Position numbers and translations under genes: made by a program. A DNA stretch of 9,004 nt, taken from NCBI GenBank assembly GCA_046497485.1, contig JAWOFP010000057.1:1-9004 (forward strand). Direction: 5' to 3'. The notes beneath the pieces are model-generated. The model was not told where the DNA came from. It did not search any database and worked only from the letters and a program-made list of their open reading frames with translations. Positions 1-7,444 of this stretch are shown here, in pieces (position 1 is the stretch's first letter; the number at the start of each line of letters is the position of its first letter). Source of the stretch: Candidatus Nanohaloarchaea archaeon (GTDB lineage: Archaea > Nanohalarchaeota > Nanosalinia > Nanosalinales > Nanosalinaceae).

Positions 1-24
1 GATACTCAGGATGGTTATTCCTTA

Positions 25-819
25 ATGGCTCAGAACCGAGAGATTATGTCATCGCATTTCAAGTTCAAGAAAAGCAAGAGCGATCTCGACACACTGGAAG
101 AAATAATTCAGTACTTTGTAACAGATAAAGACGGTTTCAGTGGGCCAGCAAGCATGGAAATGGCATTAGATATCCTTGGATACAGTGTTAAACAGGAAGA
201 GTTTGCTGAAAAGGCCTCAAAGAAAGAAGAGGAAGATTCTGAAGAAGAGGACTCAGAAGACGATTTAGAAGATGAAATAGAGATTACAGAAGAAGATCTA
301 ATGAAGACTGTTGGAGATATAACAGAAGATGAAGTCTTAACAGCTTGGATTGAATCAGAACATATATCAGATGCAGCAAACGAATTCAAGACCTGGTTCA
401 ACGATGGAGGCCTTGTTGTCCCTGCATTTGATAAATCAAAAGTTCTTCCTTCAGAAGATGGCAGCGAGTACGCAGTCGTTGTAGGAGTTGAAGGCACAGA
501 AATCCTGGTAATGGATCCAAGCAGATCTTCAGGAGGCGTATACTATATCAACAAAGATAGGCTGCTGGATGCGATGGAAGATCATGGCTACATTGTTCTT
601 GCTCCGGTAGGCACTCGTTCAGAATGGAGAGTGAAGAATGATCTTATTTACTCGGATAAGAGCTACTATGATGAGCTTTCTAAGAATCTGGAGAATAGGC
701 TGAGAAAGATTGTCAGACAGGGAAGCATCTTGAAGGATGTCATGCCTGAACAAGTTCAGAAGTATACGGAAGAATGGAAATCGGATGAAAAAGTATCCAG
801 AGTATGGAAACCAGAGTGA
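25..819 (+). CDS. Peptidase C39-like (papain-fold) protein, probably catalytically inactive, with an acidic low-complexity insert
   Basis: GFSGPASMEMALDILG matches the C39 'CGPAsLaM.l...G' motif with Cys replaced by Ser. GSEYAVVVGVEGTEILVMDPS matches 'HyvVv.G.d...v.i.DP' with His replaced by Glu. Insert KKEEEDSEEEDSEDDLEDEIE. The ATG overlaps a TAA (TAATG, 23-27), consistent with coupling to an upstream gene. Confidence 0.65.
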   Translation: MAQNREIMSSHFKFKKSKSDLDTLEEIIQYFVTDKDGFSGPASMEMALDILGYSVKQEEFAEKASKKEEEDSEEEDSEDDLEDEIEITEEDLMKTVGDITEDEVLTAWIESEHISDAANEFKTWFNDGGLVVPAFDKSKVLPSEDGSEYAVVVGVEGTEILVMDPSRSSGGVYYINKDRLLDAMEDHGYIVLAPVGTRSEWRVKNDLIYSDKSYYDELSKNLENRLRKIVRQGSILKDVMPEQVQKYTEEWKSDEKVSRVWKPE

Positions 820-829
820 GGCCTAAACC

Positions 830-1642
830 TTGAAACTCCTGAAAATATCCGACAGTGAACTTGAACAGTTCGATCCTTATTTTGATGAGACAGAGAGAGT
901 AGAGATTTCCGCTGTAGCACCAGAAGTTGTTGATGGAAACTTTGATGTAAAGATTGGGGACTCAAGTATAGGCGATTTCGATGTAGTATATGCAGAAATA
1001 CCTGTGAAAAACGCGGTCTTCGGCAGAGTCATGCTTGAAATGATTGAAGAAGCCCAGATCCCGGTAAATTACTCATCTACAGGATTCTTCCTTTCCGCTA
1101 AGAAAAATTATCAGTACTATACTCTTCACGAACAAGACATTCCAGCGCTGAAGACTGCTGTGGTTGCGACAGAAAAATCTGCTAGAAACCTTGATAAGGA
1201 ACTGAAAGGCCCTATAATTGGAAGAAGATTGGAAGACCTAAAAGAAGTAGAAAATAAGAAACTCGACACGGTAGACAGTATAAAGGCCTTTGCAGATGGT
1301 ACTGAATACAGCGATGAACTATTGATTTTCCATGAGTATCGTAAAGGAGAAAAATACAGATGCCTAGTTATAGATGGAAAAATTATACCTGTACAGGATG
1401 ACTCTGAAGACTGGAGATTTACTGAAGATAATCTAAAATACTCCAATATTTCAGATAAACAGACGGAGATAGTGAAGAAAGCCGTAAAGAGGATAGGAAC
1501 ACCTATGGCTGAAGTACTGATTAGGGGAGAACAGGTCTACGATATCAGGCCTAATCCTGATTTGGAGATGTATACTGATGTTTCAGGTAAAAACGCCTTC
1601 GAGTCAGTAGCTGATATGTTGAAGGAGGAGGCCTCTCAATGA
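830..1642 (+). CDS. Degenerate RimK/LysX-like ATP-grasp protein, probable pseudoenzyme
   Basis: TTG start preceded by GTGAGG. Collinear similarity to the next ORF and the RimK fold (DFDVVYAEI, IPVNYS, IPALKT, GPII, YRCLVIDGKII, DWR, PNPD). It lacks the Gly-rich loop and the ExN metal-binding motif. Confidence 0.7.
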   Translation: MKLLKISDSELEQFDPYFDETERVEISAVAPEVVDGNFDVKIGDSSIGDFDVVYAEIPVKNAVFGRVMLEMIEEAQIPVNYSSTGFFLSAKKNYQYYTLHEQDIPALKTAVVATEKSARNLDKELKGPIIGRRLEDLKEVENKKLDTVDSIKAFADGTEYSDELLIFHEYRKGEKYRCLVIDGKIIPVQDDSEDWRFTEDNLKYSNISDKQTEIVKKAVKRIGTPMAEVLIRGEQVYDIRPNPDLEMYTDVSGKNAFESVADMLKEEASQ

Positions 1643-2523
1643 AGTTAGCAGTGGTTTACGGTGAGATCTCCACTAGGCATCAGCAGATTATGGAGAGAGC
1701 CGAAGATATATTTGATTCTGTGCTTGCTGTACCTGTCGATGGATTAAAGTTTGTTCATGGTGAGGAAGATAAAATTCTGTACAAAGATACTGATTTAACA
1801 GACTTTGAGGCAGTCTATATCCGTATTGATGACCGTGACATGATGCTGGCTGAGCACTTAGCTGAAGTATTGAATAACAATGATGTTGTAACTCAGGCTG
1901 CAGATGACACATTCTCATATGACTCAAACAAGTTCTATAACATGAAGGTCTTGGCAGAAAACGGCGTTAAAGTCCCTGACAGCGTATACACATTGTCTCC
2001 TGATGTTGCTGTTTCCGAAGCTAAAAAACTGGGCTATCCAGTAATTATGAAGACGATCAAAGGTGCTGGCGGAGAAGGAGTAATGCGGGCCTCAAGCGAA
2101 AACGAACTGAAGCCTGTTATGGATACGATGAAGTCCTTTGAACAGGAGATCTGCCTTCAGGATTACAAGGAGCATCAGGGAAGCGATACTAGAATGGTGG
2201 TTATAGGAGACTATGTCACAGGTTACGGACGAACAAGCGGTGGAGACGACTGGAGGTCAAATATTTCATCAGGCGGAGAAAGAACAAAGTCTGAACTTTC
2301 AGAGGAGAAAATTGAGACCGCCATTAGGGCAGCCAGAGCTACAGGATTCGACATTTGTGGCTGTGACTTGATTCAGACAGAAGATGGCGAATTCTATATA
2401 CTGGAAGTTAATGCAGCTTTCGCGGTAAGCGATGAAATGAATGAAATAATAGGAGAAGATGTTACTCTAAAACTGGTTGAGAGAATGCATGAAAAAGCCC
2501 AAGAAAAAAGAAGAAAGAACTAG
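1639..2523 (+). CDS. RimK/LysX family ATP-grasp alpha-L-glutamate ligase-like protein
   Basis: Intact motifs: NKF..MKVL..NGVKVPDS, GYPVIMKTIKGAGGEGV, LQDY, DTR, DWRSNISSGG, CGCDL, YILEVN. ATGA overlap with the upstream ORF. Confidence 0.9.
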   Translation: MKLAVVYGEISTRHQQIMERAEDIFDSVLAVPVDGLKFVHGEEDKILYKDTDLTDFEAVYIRIDDRDMMLAEHLAEVLNNNDVVTQAADDTFSYDSNKFYNMKVLAENGVKVPDSVYTLSPDVAVSEAKKLGYPVIMKTIKGAGGEGVMRASSENELKPVMDTMKSFEQEICLQDYKEHQGSDTRMVVIGDYVTGYGRTSGGDDWRSNISSGGERTKSELSEEKIETAIRAARATGFDICGCDLIQTEDGEFYILEVNAAFAVSDEMNEIIGEDVTLKLVERMHEKAQEKRRKN

Positions 2524-3443
2524 ATTTCAGTTATAGCATCCACGATTTTCTTCATCCAAGGCTTCTCCCATTCTTCTTTACGGCCTTCACCATGGTAATA
2601 AACGCCAGGCTGGGAATTTAACTCGACGATCCAAGGCCTTCCATCAGAGTACATGAAATCAACTGTGTAAATACTAGGATTATACTGGTTCAAATTCTTC
2701 CCTACTTCTTCAACTATCTCAAAGATTCTATCCCCCAGTTCATCTAGTTCTACATAGATCTTGCTTCCGCCTAATGCTACATTGCTTAGGAGGCCTTCGT
2801 CAGGAACTCTGAAGTAAGATCCTATAGGTTCGCCGTTCACTACTAAAACTCTGAGGTCGTGAGGACCTTCAATTCCGTACTCAGGCAGATCATCTGACTC
2901 CATAAATCTCTGTACAAGCATATCTTCCGATATAGTTTCAGGCATTTCTTCAATTACCTTGATCCCTTCTCCTGATGAGCCATAACGCGGTTTAAGCACC
3001 ACTCTGTCGTATTTTTCTAGCATTTCCTCTACATTTTCTTTTGAGCCTTTCCGTGTCTCAGGCAGATAATCTGGGAACTTTCTGTAGGTCTCAAGCTTAT
3101 CCTGACAAAGTTCAGCCACCTCAGAATCATTCAGAATACCGACTTCTTCCTTCATCTCTTTTTTTAACTCATATTTTTCCTCATCGTGCCTGAAAAGATC
3201 ATAGACTCCATTAAGCTCAATATCTTCTAATTTCTCCCACTCTTCACCATTCCAGTGGAAGGCCTTCTCCATTTTCCCATCTTGGTAATGACGGTATTCT
3301 CCGCAAAGGACTTCCACATCTTTTTCTTCCAGCATTTCAGTATACTCAGCGTAATCCTTGTTTTTCCATTCTTTATCGCCGAAAGGCCTGTCTTTACTCC
3401 AGTCTACCTCGTCTTCCCACCAGAGAAAAGCGACCGTTTTCAT
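2520..3443 (-). CDS. ATP-grasp amide ligase (RimK/GshB/YheCD-like), paralog B
   Basis: Motifs CQDKLETY, LPET, VVLKPRYGSSGEGI, LVQRF, HDLRVLVVNG, SNVALGG, VDFM, PWIVELNSQPG. The start overlaps the stop of paralog A (ATGA). Confidence 0.88.
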   Translation of the reverse strand: MKTVAFLWWEDEVDWSKDRPFGDKEWKNKDYAEYTEMLEEKDVEVLCGEYRHYQDGKMEKAFHWNGEEWEKLEDIELNGVYDLFRHDEEKYELKKEMKEEVGILNDSEVAELCQDKLETYRKFPDYLPETRKGSKENVEEMLEKYDRVVLKPRYGSSGEGIKVIEEMPETISEDMLVQRFMESDDLPEYGIEGPHDLRVLVVNGEPIGSYFRVPDEGLLSNVALGGSKIYVELDELGDRIFEIVEEVGKNLNQYNPSIYTVDFMYSDGRPWIVELNSQPGVYYHGEGRKEEWEKPWMKKIVDAITEI

Positions 3444-4378
3444 GCAAACCGTTTCTCGAGCATATTCAAGATATTCCTGATTTTAGGCAGTTCTTTTTCC
3501 TCTTCCTTGACTTCGTGATGGTAATATGTGCCTGGCTTCGAATTTAACTCGACAATCCAAGGCCTTCCGTCTTTATCAAGCATAAAGTCTACGGAGAAAA
3601 TGGCGGGCTGAAAACGCTCAAACTCAGACTTCATGTCCTCAATAATTTCAACTATCTCTTCAAGGAGCTCATCTCTATCCACATAAACTTGGTCTCCGCC
3701 TCTTGAAATATTGCTGATTAGGCCTTCATCAGGGACTCTGACATAGTTCCCGTCCTGAATCTCGCCGTCGATAACAATTGTTCTCAAATCATGAGGGCCT
3801 TCAACACCGAGTTCTGGAATACCATCAGTCTCAATAAAGGCTTGTAAAATGAAATGCTCAGAGTTTTCCGGTTCCTCAAATTCTTCAACTGATTCAATTA
3901 TTTCTACTCCTTCCCCCGCAAATCCGTATCGCGGTTTGAAAACTACTTTACCGTACTGTTTCAGCATTTCCTCTATATTTTCTTTTGAGGCCTCTCGGGT
4001 TTCTGGTACATAATCAGGGAAGAGCTGGTAGGTCTTTAGTTTATCCTTGCAGATTTCCTCAAGTTCGGTATCATTTAGAATTCCTACTTCTTCAGAAATC
4101 TTTTGCTTTAATTTTTTGGTCTCAGGATCATATTTGAACTTGTCATAAACTCCGTCAAGCTCGATATTTTCTGATTTTTCCCATTCTTTTCCGTTCCAGT
4201 GAAAGGCTTTGTTGAGGCCTCCATTAGAGTACCACTGATAGTTGGCTATGAAAATATTCAGATTAAGATCTTTTCCCAGTTCAGTGTACTTTGCAAAGTC
4301 TTTGCTTCTTTCTCCTCCGAAAGGATCTTCCCGATCCCATTCAACTTCCTTATCCCAGAGAATCCCTATATTCTTCAT
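3440..4378 (-). CDS. ATP-grasp amide ligase (RimK/GshB/YheCD-like), paralog A
   Basis: Motifs CKDKLKTY, VPET, VVFKPRYGFAGEGV, ILQAF, HDLRTIVIDG, SNISRGG, VDFM, PWIVELNSKPG. Similar over its full length to 2520..3443. Confidence 0.88.
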   Translation of the reverse strand: MKNIGILWDKEVEWDREDPFGGERSKDFAKYTELGKDLNLNIFIANYQWYSNGGLNKAFHWNGKEWEKSENIELDGVYDKFKYDPETKKLKQKISEEVGILNDTELEEICKDKLKTYQLFPDYVPETREASKENIEEMLKQYGKVVFKPRYGFAGEGVEIIESVEEFEEPENSEHFILQAFIETDGIPELGVEGPHDLRTIVIDGEIQDGNYVRVPDEGLISNISRGGDQVYVDRDELLEEIVEIIEDMKSEFERFQPAIFSVDFMLDKDGRPWIVELNSKPGTYYHHEVKEEEKELPKIRNILNMLEKRFA

Positions 4379-4401
4379 AAAAATTATTTTGAACTCAGCA
4401 T

Positions 4402-4411
4402 TCTTAATAGA
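4402..4411. promoter_or_regulatory. Putative TATA box in the divergent intergenic region, possibly bidirectional
   Basis: TTAATA (+) / TATTAA (-) at 4404-4409 lies in the middle of a 54-bp gap, about 24-31 bp from both the ATG at 4378 (-) and the ATG at 4433 (+). That spacing fits leaderless archaeal transcripts. Confidence 0.4.
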
Positions 4412-4432
4412 TTTAGCAGCGAACTAGAAAGT

Positions 4433-5617
4433 ATGAAACCGGAAAATCCTGAAGTAAAGGAAAAAATAGCTTACCAAGAATTAGAGTTAGAGTTCTCGGA
4501 AGAAAATCTATTCGAAGAACTTTACGAAATGATAGAAGTTCTGACGGGAGAGGCTAACTGGGGTCAAAACATTAATATCAAAAACAGAGAAGAGCAGAAA
4601 AAGGCCTTTCAGGAAGCCAGAGAAAATGGAGAAAAATGGGATCCGGATTTTGAGTTCAAAGATACTGGAAAAGATTTCCGGGCTTTGAAGAATAATATTG
4701 ATCAATGCATAGAGGCCTCAAATAATATTTCAGAGGAAAATATGGGTGATGCAGGATTTGAAGTTTTAACTCCTGAAGACTTGCAAGACTTCTTCAAGGA
4801 ATCTTTCCGTGAATTAAGGCTTTATGTAGATTTAGCTGAGAATATTGAAGGCAGAGAGGCCTGGAAAGAAGTTAGTGAGAAAATCTGGCCGATGATTTCC
4901 AAAGGAGAATATCAGAATTCTTTGGAAGAAATAGAAGGCCTAGAAAATAGAGAAAGTGAGAAGGTTCTAGATGCAGAGGATGTCAAGGAAATGTTTGAAG
5001 AAGAGATTGAGAGATTAGGTTTTGGCTACAGTGTGGAGGTCAGAGAGGTTTCGGGCTGCTTTAATGCTCCTGAAGAGAGAACTGTTGTAGTTGCAAAAGG
5101 AACTGATTCAGAGAGATTTTACTCAAAAGAAGAGGCTGAAATGCTTACAAAACACGAAATTTTCCATGTAGTGAGAGGTATCAACGGTAGAAATATCTCG
5201 GATAACTTCCCTGAAGTTCTCGGAATTCATTCTCCATTTTACGATCAGACAGAGGAAGGCGGCGCACTCTACCGCGAGAGAAAGACTAACACGAATTTTG
5301 AGGCAAAAGACTTTGACTACCATCTACGGTTAATCGCTGCTTACAAAATGAGTCAAGGCGAGACCTTCCATGATGTAATCGAGGATTTACTTGAACTAGG
5401 AGGATCATTAGACAGGAGCTTCTACTTAGTTGCGAGAAATAGAGAGGCCTTAAGACATCATATATACCTCTCTGGTATCAAGGACTGGAATGAAAATAAC
5501 ACTGAAAAACTGTTGATTGGAAAACTGAATTCTGAATGGGCGGGAAAATTCTGGGAAGAAGTAGAAAACGGCAGCTTTAACAGGCCTGAAATAGATTCGG
5601 AGGCGCTTTTCCAATGA
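4433..5617 (+). CDS. DUF1704 / MATCAP(TMCP)-like gluzincin metallo-carboxypeptidase, 394 aa
   Basis: LTKHEIFHVVRGING...LG...P....TEEGGALYRE resembles the DUF1704 'HEigtH....NG......(Q/E)EGLA' signature, with IYLSG near the C-terminus. Start moved from 4199 to the in-frame ATG at 4433 to avoid a 180-bp antisense overlap. Confidence 0.75.
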   Translation: MKPENPEVKEKIAYQELELEFSEENLFEELYEMIEVLTGEANWGQNINIKNREEQKKAFQEARENGEKWDPDFEFKDTGKDFRALKNNIDQCIEASNNISEENMGDAGFEVLTPEDLQDFFKESFRELRLYVDLAENIEGREAWKEVSEKIWPMISKGEYQNSLEEIEGLENRESEKVLDAEDVKEMFEEEIERLGFGYSVEVREVSGCFNAPEERTVVVAKGTDSERFYSKEEAEMLTKHEIFHVVRGINGRNISDNFPEVLGIHSPFYDQTEEGGALYRERKTNTNFEAKDFDYHLRLIAAYKMSQGETFHDVIEDLLELGGSLDRSFYLVARNREALRHHIYLSGIKDWNENNTEKLLIGKLNSEWAGKFWEEVENGSFNRPEIDSEALFQ

Positions 5618-6049: not shown

Positions 6050-6616
6050 ATGTACAAAAGACTGACAATCGAGGATTCCGTGCGAGTCCCTCCACAGCAT
6101 TTGGGAGACAATGTAGAAGAAAGCGTTGAAAACGGGCTTAAAGAAGAGAAAGAAGGAGTTATCCACCCGGAGATAGGAGTAGTAATGGCGATTGAGTCCG
6201 TCGAAGAGATTGAAGGCGGCGATATTGAACCAGAAGACGCTGGAATTCATTACAATGCAACTTACAAGGCATTAGTTTTTGAGCCTGAGATGCATGAAGT
6301 ACTGAATGGAGAGGTAGTAGATCTTACGGAGTTCGGAGCATTTGTCAGGATTGGGCCGTTTGATGGCCTATGCCACATCTCACAGGTTACAGATGACTAC
6401 ATGAACCTAGATGAAGAGAACATGATGCTTACAAGCGATGAACAGGAGAAAAGCCTAGGAATGAACGATACAGTTACAGCAAGGATAATCGCAGTAAGTC
6501 TAGGCAACCAAGAATCAAATAAGATTAACTTGACGATGAGACAGCCAGGCCTCGGAAAAGAGGAATGGATCGAGCAGTACGAAGAAGAACAGGAAGAAGA
6601 CGAGGAGGAAGAATAA
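6050..6616 (+). CDS. rpoE1: DNA-directed RNA polymerase subunit E' (Rpo7)
   Basis: MYKRLTIEDSVRVPP; S1 domain GEVVDLTEFGAFVRIGPFDGLCHISQVTDD; LTMRQPGLGKEEW. Confidence 0.97.
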   Translation: MYKRLTIEDSVRVPPQHLGDNVEESVENGLKEEKEGVIHPEIGVVMAIESVEEIEGGDIEPEDAGIHYNATYKALVFEPEMHEVLNGEVVDLTEFGAFVRIGPFDGLCHISQVTDDYMNLDEENMMLTSDEQEKSLGMNDTVTARIIAVSLGNQESNKINLTMRQPGLGKEEWIEQYEEEQEEDEEEE

Positions 6617-6619
6617 AAT

Positions 6620-6805
6620 ATGGCGGAGAAGGCCTGTACTGACTGTAATAGAATAGTAGAAGATTCGGATGAATGTCCGGTATGCAAGAATAATGTGCTA
6701 TCAAACTCGTGGAGCGGCCTAGTGGTCGTCTATGATTCAGATAGCGAGATTGCTGAAGAAGTAGGAGTTCAAACCCCTGGAAGATACGCAATCAGAGTCA
6801 AATAA
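6620..6805 (+). CDS. spt4: Transcription elongation factor Spt4 (RpoE'')
   Basis: KACxxC...CPVC zinc ribbon, WSGLVVV.D..SEIA, PGRYAIRV. Directly after rpoE1. Confidence 0.96.
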   Translation: MAEKACTDCNRIVEDSDECPVCKNNVLSNSWSGLVVVYDSDSEIAEEVGVQTPGRYAIRVK

Positions 6806-6823: not shown

Positions 6824-7282
6824 ATGGAAGTCGAAATTACAACAGTAAAAGAGAATCCTCTCATGGATAGAAGAGAGGTAGAAGCAACAGTAAACCACGA
6901 AAATGAGGCAACACCAAGCAAAGAAGATGTTCTTTCAAGGCTTGCAGCAGACAGAGGCCTCAACAAAGATAATGTCGATGTAAAGCATGTCTACACAGGA
7001 TACGGTAGACAGAAATCAAAGGCAATTATTCAGATAAACGAAGAGTTCGAGTACGACGAAGATCTTGAAGAAGACACAATTGAGCAGGAGACAGAGACAG
7101 AAACTGAAGAAGAAGAAGGCTCAAGTTCTGCAGAGTATGATAACATAGTTGCAGGAACAATCACAGAAGCGAAGGAAGCTCTAAGTGAAATGGAAGAACC
7201 TGACTACGAAGCAGCTAAAGAAGCAGAAGAAGCAAACAAAAACCGTACTACACTTATCGACTGGTTAGAAGACCAGATTTAA
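6824..7282 (+). CDS. rps24e: 30S ribosomal protein S24e with acidic linker and extra C-terminal helical module
   Basis: KENPLMDRREV...H...ATPSKEDV...LAA...V.HVYTGYG. Shine-Dalgarno GAGGT at 6808-6812. Conserved position before rps27ae. Confidence 0.92.
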   Translation: MEVEITTVKENPLMDRREVEATVNHENEATPSKEDVLSRLAADRGLNKDNVDVKHVYTGYGRQKSKAIIQINEEFEYDEDLEEDTIEQETETETEEEEGSSSAEYDNIVAGTITEAKEALSEMEEPDYEAAKEAEEANKNRTTLIDWLEDQI

Positions 7283-7294
7283 GGTGATCCAAGA

Positions 7295-7444
7295 ATGGCA
7301 AAACACGAGAAAGTAGATAGATTCGAGAAATACAACGAAGACGGAAGCTACGACGGAGAGAAATGCCCAAGATGCGGCAGCTTCCTAGGACAGCACGAAG
7401 ACCGCATGAGCTGCGGTAAATGTGGATACACAAAACACCAATAA
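7295..7444 (+). CDS. rps27ae: 30S ribosomal protein S27ae (eS31), 49 aa, not in the ORF track
   Basis: Manual translation: [49 protein letters not shown]. Matches the CPRCG..L..H.DR..CGKCGYT signature. Shine-Dalgarno AGGTGAT at 7282-7288. Confidence 0.95.

Follow-up and report, generated by a model that had tools for sequence, protein, structure and literature searches.

The window analysed here is the complete 9,004-bp contig JAWOFP010000057.1 of a Candidatus Nanohaloarchaea archaeon (C58 in our numbering; genome of 0.97 Mb in 66 contigs, 42% G+C, 97% complete). It begins with a cluster of six genes, g1 to g6, which fill positions 1-5617 (Table 1). Their ends overlap by 4 bp or are separated by gaps of 10 and 54 bp, in agreement with an earlier note on this stretch, made from the letters alone, in which six contiguous and tightly spaced genes were read as a reversible tagging or polyglutamate system of four ATP-grasp ligases, a MATCAP-like zinc peptidase and a dead C39 peptidase. 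The cluster comprises the C-terminal half of an MscS-like channel that carries a papain/C39-like domain (g1), two proteins of RimK fold (g2 and g3), two YheCD-like ligases (g4 and g5) and a MATCAP-family enzyme (g6). We give an even chance to the reading that these genes encode a channel-anchored module, conserved across Nanohaloarchaea, that builds and trims acidic peptides, with a substrate and a physiology that we infer.

Table 1. Genes and features of the window (nt, nucleotides; aa, amino acids; ORF, open reading frame; AF2, AlphaFold2)
Feature	Position	Strand	Basis or remark
g1, C-terminal 272 aa of an MscS-like channel of about 515 aa	1-819	+	ORF open at base 1; papain/C39-like cytoplasmic domain, conserved helix, tail WKPE
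g1, codon at the catalytic Cys position, here Ser (FSGPAS)	139-141	+	column tally; 25/46 orthologues with Cys (YCGPAS)
g1, codon at the catalytic His position, here Glu (SEYAVV)	466-468	+	column tally; 25/46 orthologues with His (GHY)
g1, Asp of the DPS motif	514-516	+	invariant in 46 sequences
g1, conserved C-terminal helix region (fragment residues 204-243), predicted g2/g3 docking site	610-729	+	alignment and complex prediction
g2, putative RimK-fold pseudo-ligase, 270 aa	830-1642	+	profile and AF2 model; conserved partner of g3
g3, RimK-type ATP-grasp ligase, 294 aa, catalytic residues intact	1639-2523	+	PF08443
g4, YheCD-like ATP-grasp ligase, 307 aa, paralogue of g5	2520-3443	-	PF14398
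g5, YheCD-like ATP-grasp ligase, 312 aa	3440-4378	-	PF14398
g6, divergent MATCAP/DUF1704-family predicted Zn carboxypeptidase, 394 aa from ATG 4433	4433-5617	+	PF08014; HExxH at nt 5153-5167
RpoE/Rpb7	6050-6616		C-terminus EEEQEEDEEEE
Small zinc-ribbon gene, 61 aa, position as Spt4/RpoE''	6620-6805	+	CxxC...CxxC; named from position and motif; below the 80-aa ORF cut-off
S24e	6824-7282		acidic C-terminal extension of about 55 aa
Small zinc-ribbon gene, 49 aa, position as ribosomal protein S27ae	7295-7444	+	named from position and motif; below the 80-aa ORF cut-off

Concerning g1, the first 191 nt of the window are identical, and in frame, to the reverse-complemented end of another contig of the same genome (C22). 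The gene is split by the contig end, and its N-terminal transmembrane part and beta-domain are situated on C22; the ATG at position 25 is internal to an ORF that runs open to base 1 and was rejected as start. The part on C22 matches PF00924 (MscS beta-domain) with 31.7 bits (cut-off 20.2) and PF05552 with 21.2 bits (cut-off 22). The orthologues, 490-535 aa in length, start with an MscS-type transmembrane helix and beta-domain, PF00924 being found in 42/46 and PF05552 in 27/46 of them. Among 1.84 billion representative proteins the g1 fragment has 64 matches, and since nearly all of these are 480-530 aa long and matched in their C-terminal half, the fusion of channel and papain-like domain is the rule in what is a small family. 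Two ordinary MscS genes exist in the same genome besides g1, which marks g1 as a specialised paralogue. Two records with labels from other groups also carry such proteins: one labelled as a marine bacterium (L102) matches g1 with 47% identity (1e-74), the label probably being a binning or labelling error, and one labelled Methanosarcinales (L123) contains a channel-papain fusion (PF13529 3e-7, Phytochelatin 1.8e-5) with no adjoining match to g2 or g3.

The C39-like Pfam match of the fragment in the window amounts to 22.1 bits (cut-off 24). PF13529 is matched at E <= 1e-3 by 27/46 orthologues (best 9e-10), and a distant orthologue (L129) reaches 49.9 bits. The AF2 model of the fragment (predicted local distance difference test, pLDDT, 76, with the core above 90) exhibits a papain-like fold in Foldseek, with the phytochelatin synthase-like Alr0975 as best match (E 8e-7), with PeiR also matched, and with TMt values of 0.70-0.78 to the C39 domains of ComA and PCAT1. 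In the window, Asp, Ser and Glu are found at the positions of the catalytic Gln, Cys and His, such that only the catalytic Asp is retained, and by these residues the domain is judged to be catalytically dead. Both the Cys and the His are kept in 22/46 orthologues, each of them alone in 25/46, and the printed motifs of Cys-bearing orthologues show a Gln five residues before the Cys (read by eye, without a tally). The dead C39 peptidase of the earlier note thus has the C39-like fold and the lost residues ascribed to it, but it is a domain of an MscS-like channel and not a stand-alone protein, and nearly half of its orthologues are intact. Ser47, considered as a replacement nucleophile, is unlikely to act as such because decayed orthologues show S, T, A, R, Q, P or N at this site and the His position is variable as well. 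The papain-like domain further contains an insertion of around 27 mostly acidic residues (KKEEEDSEEEDSEDDLEDEIEITEEDL; window positions 217-300, fragment residues ~73-100), which exceeds that of the nearest orthologue by 17 residues and has a low confidence in the model.

The C-terminal helix of g1 is conserved, with W209, R210, L215, Y217, Y223, K228, E231, L234, R239 and G241 invariant in 46 sequences. The tail beyond the invariant W269 (window positions 805-819) is acidic and starts with WxP(E/D) in 33/46 sequences; the last residues are ...(K/Q)(L/I)DEFTxxDE in one deep clade and ...(S/T)E(D/N)N in many members of the other, and the tail in the window is the shortest. These ends, conserved by clade, lie beside the site at which the g2/g3 pair is predicted to dock.

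Of this pair, g3 is a RimK-type ligase whose catalytic residues are intact in every cluster type. It matches PF08443 (RimK) with 4e-32 and 111.7 bits (cut-off 21), narrowly misses TIGR00768 (138 bits, cut-off 143.4) and matches Escherichia coli RimK (5zct) with 1e-21 in the profile comparison. Invariant in 46/46 sequences are K138, G142/144/145/147, Q169, Q174, D183, R185, R206-S207-N208, D243, E256 and N258. No Pfam match was obtained for g2, the profile of which matches RimK structures with an E value of 1e-6 and the AF2 model of which (pLDDT 94.2) resembles RimK 7qyr/5zk6 with template modelling (TM) scores of 0.80-0.87. In 44 sequences, g2 is devoid of equivalents to the Gly-rich loop, the Mg-ligand Asp (D243), R198, S207/N208 and G212 of g3. 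As this catalytic signature is lost in all cluster types and the sequence is nevertheless conserved (mean column identity 45%), g2 appears to be a pseudo-ligase subunit. The count of four ATP-grasp ligases in the earlier note therefore holds for the folds, that of g2 resting on its model, whereas only three of the four look catalytic. All three RimK-Pfam matches of the genome fall in this cluster.

A complex was predicted from three chains, namely g3, g2 and, as the scored partner, g1 residues 28-272, with their own alignments and with three controls. The docking ipSAE was 0.86, 0.86 and 0.87, as against 0.00 in all three controls, on a calibration (116/157 solved complexes, 2/215 mismatched pairs) that is only roughly valid for a three-chain job. 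At least 89% of the contacts were common between runs, with a partner pLDDT of at least 76. The predicted interface sets the g1 helix 204-243 against g2 76-102 and 220-224 and g3 88-109 and 230-236, and falls on the invariant residues of the g1 C-terminal part and on the most conserved residues of g2. The g2/g3 pair is thus predicted to dock on the C-terminal helix of the channel.

Concerning known pathways, the ligases score below the equivalog cut-offs: 94.4 bits for LysX/ArgX (TIGR02144, cut-off 275.6), 64.7 bits for CofF (cut-off 300), 105.9 bits for MptN (cut-off 350) and, in the case of g3, 87.5 bits for the S6-Glu ligase PRK10446 (cut-off 331), the GshB cut-off of NCBIfam being missed by a wide margin. 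In the 97%-complete genome, LysW (TIGR01206) was not found, with control matches in 4 genomes; neither were CofE, MCH and GCS2, for which the control genomes gave matches, nor the acceptor bS6 (bacterial S6, PF01250), which was matched in 10/14 control genomes. The LysX/ArgX, CofF, MptN and GshB pathways were rejected on these scores and on the missing partner genes, and bacterial S6 as acceptor of the ligase on its absence from the genome. The position of the ligases outside these families is thereby supported, and the LysW carrier and cofactor-pathway genes that were not visible in the window according to the earlier note were not found in the 97%-complete genome either.

The paralogues g4 and g5, 52% identical to each other, match PF14398 (YheCD) with 2e-14 (53.8 bits) and 1e-19 (71.3 bits), respectively. 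The ATP-grasp catalytic residues of this YheCD-like family are at least 95% conserved in 35 members, and both proteins look catalytic. A match of g5 to PF03133 (TTL; 32.3 bits, cut-off 20.1) extends over residues 259-290 only and g4 remains under the cut-off with 18.4 bits; with a TTL match of 32 residues in the one, a sub-threshold match in the other and higher YheCD scores, membership in the TTL family was not upheld.

By its residues and profile matches, g6 is a divergent zinc carboxypeptidase of the MATCAP family with intact catalytic residues, as had been suggested in the earlier note. It matches PF08014 (MATCAP) with 47.2 bits (cut-off 27), its profile matches human MATCAP (7z5g) with 2.7e-15, and the HExxH motif and the downstream Glu are invariant in 25/25 relatives (H241, E242, H245, R248, N251, Y270, E275, E282). 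In contrast, the score for TIGR02421 (QEGLA-motif protein) is 51.7 bits, below the equivalog cut-off of 338.65, and the clade of g6 is without the GGF(I/L)KDHIY motif of canonical family members. A GTG at 4199 was rejected as start of g6; since it would overlap g5 by 180 nt and the orthologues begin near 4433, the ATG at 4433 is the most likely start.

Conservation was studied in 61 genomes, 57 of them of the same order (Nanohaloarchaea) and 4 outgroups. Among these, g1 was found in 52, g2 in 53 and g3 in 54, one g3 being a distant RimK-like protein in an outgroup. The channel-papain fusion, g2 and g3 are contiguous in 52-53 of the 57 genomes of the order, and all 50 mapped loci exhibit the order channel, g2, g3, a variable slot, PIN, RpoE, S24e, Kae1 and Sua5; the trio is also present in three more distant archaeal records (L129, L130, L133). 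The YheCD-like family occurs in 28/61 genomes, always beside g3, and PF08014 in 34/61. The co-occurrence in related genomes that the earlier note had set as a check is accordingly seen for the core g1/g2/g3, whereas the YheCD-like and MATCAP genes are accessories of the variable slot.

Four types of this slot can be distinguished. In type I (15 genomes) it contains an unknown protein of around 340 aa with a weak MobB-like P-loop, with or without AstE/AspA. Type II (9 genomes) possesses a GCS2 carboxylate-amine ligase, with or without a YheCD-like protein. Type III, that of the window, possesses one to three YheCD-like ligases and a divergent MATCAP (12 genomes, plus 7 with MATCAP elsewhere or not found). 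Type IV (7 genomes) contains AstE/AspA, a second RimK-like ligase and another type of MATCAP. The ~340-aa protein (e.g., L033 4147-5166, L051 5474-6514, L050 4741-5763) follows g3 in 15/15 type-I clusters. A g3 tree (50 rows, quick IQ-TREE) splits into two deep clades with 100% support, in which type III is nested in type II and type IV is the neighbour of type I. Two cluster types were seen in each of four genera, and the g3 of the window is 80% identical to that of other genera and 45-48% identical to that of three members of its own genus, from which we conclude that whole cluster variants have been exchanged. The genome studied here also contains two stand-alone AstE/AspA-like deacylase genes (L136 3161-4665 on C17 and L135 4876-5634 on C10), of which one is preceded by a GNAT acetyltransferase gene, with an overlap at the end of the latter, and followed by HisRS, and the other is situated between a TyrRS/TrpRS-type gene and PGK; a ligase was not seen beside either of them.

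The state of the papain-like domain varies together with the presence of MATCAP. In a tally of 46 loci, four further loci with an incomplete g1 being excluded, a non-canonical MATCAP (of the g6 clade or of the type-IV kind) is found in 22/24 genomes with a decayed papain domain versus 0/22 with an intact one, and inside the cluster in 18/24 versus 0/22. The decayed state maps to cluster types III and IV. This complementarity suggests that the trimming function may have been displaced from the papain domain of the channel to MATCAP.

MATCAP-family genes also occur outside the cluster, where a second recurrent site is evident: they are situated directly beside the ribosomal stalk genes L10/L12 in 4/8 loci, and the gene for alanyl-tRNA synthetase (AlaRS) lies within ~5 kb in 7/8 (L017 9019-10248, L025 8277-9509, L029 8651-9766, L030 7930-9144). 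The genes at the L10/L12 side hint at acidic stalk tails as possible substrates.

Upstream of g1, on C22, eIF2-gamma and S6e are followed by TrkH and TrkA; downstream of the cluster lie PIN, RpoE, Spt4, S24e, S27ae, Kae1 and Sua5. The cluster is an insertion into a housekeeping array of translation genes. The array PIN/RpoE/Spt4/S24e/S27ae/Kae1 together with S6e/eIF2-gamma is, as far as is known, general to archaea. As the cluster is inserted in such an array, its adjacency to RpoE or S24e is weak evidence concerning substrates, and both were set aside as ligase substrates on grounds of neighbourhood. Their acidic ends (Table 1) could be ordinary features of a halophile or candidate ligase acceptors. 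The S27ae-like gene overlaps the GTG start of Kae1 (7422), such that Kae1 probably begins at an internal ATG (MRILGIES...).

Among the systems to which the cluster can be compared, the RimK-RimB(-RimA) system of Pseudomonas and E. coli is described in PMC11957051 as one in which RimK synthesises poly-alpha-Glu, besides glutamylating RpsF, and RimB does the trimming. It resembles the cluster in the RimK type of g3, in the RimK fold of g2 and in the pairing of a ligase with a potentially reversing peptidase. There are, however, differences: the known Rim substrate, bacterial S6, is absent from the genome studied here, and the Rim peptidase is a retropepsin, whereas here a papain-like channel domain or a MATCAP zinc enzyme would be found in this role. 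Furthermore, only the present cluster has an obligatory pseudo-ligase partner, a tie to a membrane channel and extra YheCD-like ligases.

The same source describes rloABC of Pseudomonas aeruginosa, which encodes a polyglutamate-cleaving peptidase, a membrane protein whose papain-superfamily (transglutaminase) domain is inactive, and a cytoplasmic ATP-grasp ligase, with a phenotype under hypo-osmotic stress and with cleavage of polyglutamate by RloA in vitro (PMC11957051, bioRxiv 2025). The likeness lies in this combination of three components. The membrane part of RloABC possesses seven transmembrane helices and a periplasmic inactive transglutaminase domain, whereas here an MscS-like channel carries a cytoplasmic C39-like domain, and the RloABC peptidase is a secreted retropepsin.

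The comparison to the tubulin code (TTL/TTLL versus MATCAP/TMCP and CCP), drawn in the earlier note, stands insofar as g6 is a member of the MATCAP family with genes for ATP-grasp ligases as its neighbours. It is an analogy of enzyme families: a tubulin-tail substrate is lacking here, g4 and g5 match YheCD best, and the clade of g6 has lost the GGF(I/L)KDHIY motif. With the C39 domains of PCAT and ComA the cluster shares a papain-like C39-type domain on the cytoplasmic side of a transporter, found in active and inactive versions. HlyB-type exporters carry a dead C39-like domain. Here, in contrast, the domain is borne by an MscS-type channel instead of an ABC transporter, there is no gene for a cargo with double-glycine leader, and the best fold match is Alr0975. 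Within the MscS family, MscCG of Corynebacterium is a glutamate-exporting channel. The transmembrane helix and beta-domain of the family are present in g1 (PF05552, PF00924), whereas the papain-like domain and the predicted ligase-docking helix either stand in for the usual C-terminal cytoplasmic domain or are added to it.

In the mechanism proposed here, the core would consist of an MscS-like channel with a papain/C39-like domain and a docking helix at its cytoplasmic end, of the pseudo-ligase g2 and of an active g3. The g2/g3 pair, held on the C-terminal helix, would place an ATP-dependent ligase of alpha-L-glutamate type at the inner mouth of a tension-sensing channel. At this inner face, g3, here together with g4 and g5, would build alpha-linked acidic peptide chains from glutamate; the product may be a Glu tail or else oligo- or poly-alpha-Glu, and shortening of the chains would fall to the papain domain or, in this genome, to the MATCAP enzyme g6. 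In a type III genome such as the present one, in which the papain domain has lost Gln, Cys and His and the slot is filled by g4, g5 and g6, trimming would be taken over by g6. The channel part could link ligation and trimming to membrane tension or to the osmotic state. The most economical role would be to shift glutamate between an osmotically active state and a bound or polymeric one, which would suit an organism with high internal K+ and imported amino acids. Such a role would echo the ideas on polyglutamate and osmotic stress put forward for RimK/RimB and RloABC in PMC11957051.

The observed gene content, channel fusion, conservation, synteny and catalytic-residue states, together with the absence of the rival pathways, describe one conserved system whose enzymes fit building and trimming, and to this extent the reversible system of the earlier note is upheld; that its product is an acidic peptide, in contrast, we infer. 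Several observations weigh against the channel-anchored module. Its substrate and product are conjectural, and the presumed glutamate specificity of g3 follows from membership in a family whose TIGR00768 cut-off was just missed. The docking of g2 and g3 is a predicted model and not a measurement. As the genome possesses two ordinary MscS genes besides g1, the latter does not have to serve as an osmotic valve. In four genomes of the order (G030, G037, G045 and the 93%-complete G040) the trio was not found. Concerning the complementarity between papain domain and MATCAP, the g3 tree exhibits only 2 independent changes of the papain state, each accompanied by MATCAP (sign test, p 0.5); as two independent pairs are too few for a sign test to become significant, the complementarity is to be read as a pattern and not as proof. 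Two genomes of one genus, G020 (99% complete) and G032, possess a decayed domain, but MATCAP was not found in them, and G051 contains a canonical-type MATCAP two genes from g3, its g1 being cut by a contig end such that the papain state was left unread. Finally, the g6-clade MATCAP is situated outside the cluster in five type-III-like genomes, at the L10/AlaRS site in G009, G015 and G027 and on another contig in G012 and G029, which weakens a strict functional tie.

Other explanations have to be weighed against the channel-anchored module. According to one of them, which we regard as unlikely, the acidic tail of the channel itself would be extended with Glu by the docked g2/g3 pair and cut back by the papain domain or MATCAP, such that a reversible polyglutamylation dial on a mechanosensitive channel would result. 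The predicted docking helix directly precedes this tail, which is acidic and exhibits the WxP(E/D) start and the clade-specific ends described above, and RimK and LysX/ArgX are enzymes that modify bound proteins at C-terminal Glu tails, the complexes RimK-RpsF (5zk6) and ArgX-LysW (3vpb) being among the fold matches. However, the tail ends in Glu in only 15/46 sequences and in Asn in 14/46, the tails vary in length and sequence, and the complex prediction gives no confident contact past residue 243.

A distinctly unlikely explanation is that the enzymes write and erase on other proteins, acidic C-termini such as those of ribosomal stalk proteins being glutamylated or extended and MATCAP removing the addition. 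It would accord with enzyme families that are known writers and erasers of protein tails (RimK/RimB on S6, TTL/MATCAP on tubulin), with the off-cluster MATCAP genes near L10/L12 and AlaRS and with the insertion of the cluster into a translation-gene array. Yet bacterial S6 is absent, adjacency carries little weight in an array whose synteny is widespread in archaea, and the explanation does not account for the constant position of the ligase-pair genes behind that of a membrane channel, nor for the predicted docking of the pair on this channel.

Synthesis and export of a small acidic peptide, made by the ligases, processed by the papain domain or MATCAP and released through the MscS-like pore in the manner of ABC exporters with a C39 domain (PCAT), whose cargo is cleaved as it is exported, is very improbable. 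The resemblance of the papain domain to the C39 domains of ComA and PCAT1, its fusion to the cytoplasmic face of the channel and the variable ligases (YheCD-like, second RimK-like, GCS2), which suggest varied small products, would be in line with it. On the other hand, the cluster includes no precursor gene: its only gaps are 820-829 and 4379-4432, such that there is no room for the precursor of a ribosomally synthesised and post-translationally modified peptide (RiPP), and the earlier note, in which none was visible, is confirmed in this respect. MscS channels are passive valves, moreover, for which no peptide cargo is known, and the papain domain in the window is predicted to be dead.

The explanation by ordinary metabolism, with the RimK-like genes being LysX/ArgX, CofF, MptN or GshB and their neighbours unrelated, can practically be dismissed, for the NCBIfam matches in its favour are weak and far under the equivalog cut-offs, LysW, CofE, MCH and GCS2 were not found in the 97%-complete genome, and the synteny with the channel is order-wide.

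Returning to the channel-anchored module, a more specific form of it, which we hold to be unlikely, would have a reversible glutamylation machine mounted on the channel, which might also be its substrate. Tension, sensed by the MscS-like part, would control the docked RimK pair, which would either polymerise glutamate of the cytoplasm or lengthen the acidic tail of the channel, and the papain domain or MATCAP would reverse its action. If this is true, a symbiont unable to make its own amino acids would possess an enzymatic osmotic or glutamate rheostat, or an ion channel with a 'tubulin-code-like' dial. A paper on an MscS-type channel combined with ATP-grasp ligases and a peptidase domain was not found in a literature search that did not cover Iyer et al. 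2009, a possible related prediction.

The near-universal presence of the trio in 52-53 of 57 genomes of the order, in genomes of ~1 Mb, argues for an important function. If the coupling of channel, ligase and peptidase is true, it would represent a new way of linking membrane tension to amino-acid or peptide chemistry. The prokaryotic MATCAP/DUF1704 enzymes gain a concrete context, as they are present where a papain-type peptidase has decayed, and the purpose of prokaryotic polyglutamylation may, with this cluster, be studied in a second system besides Rim and Rlo of Pseudomonas. In addition, the swapping of cluster variants within genera may serve as a marker of gene flow among nanohaloarchaeal symbionts.

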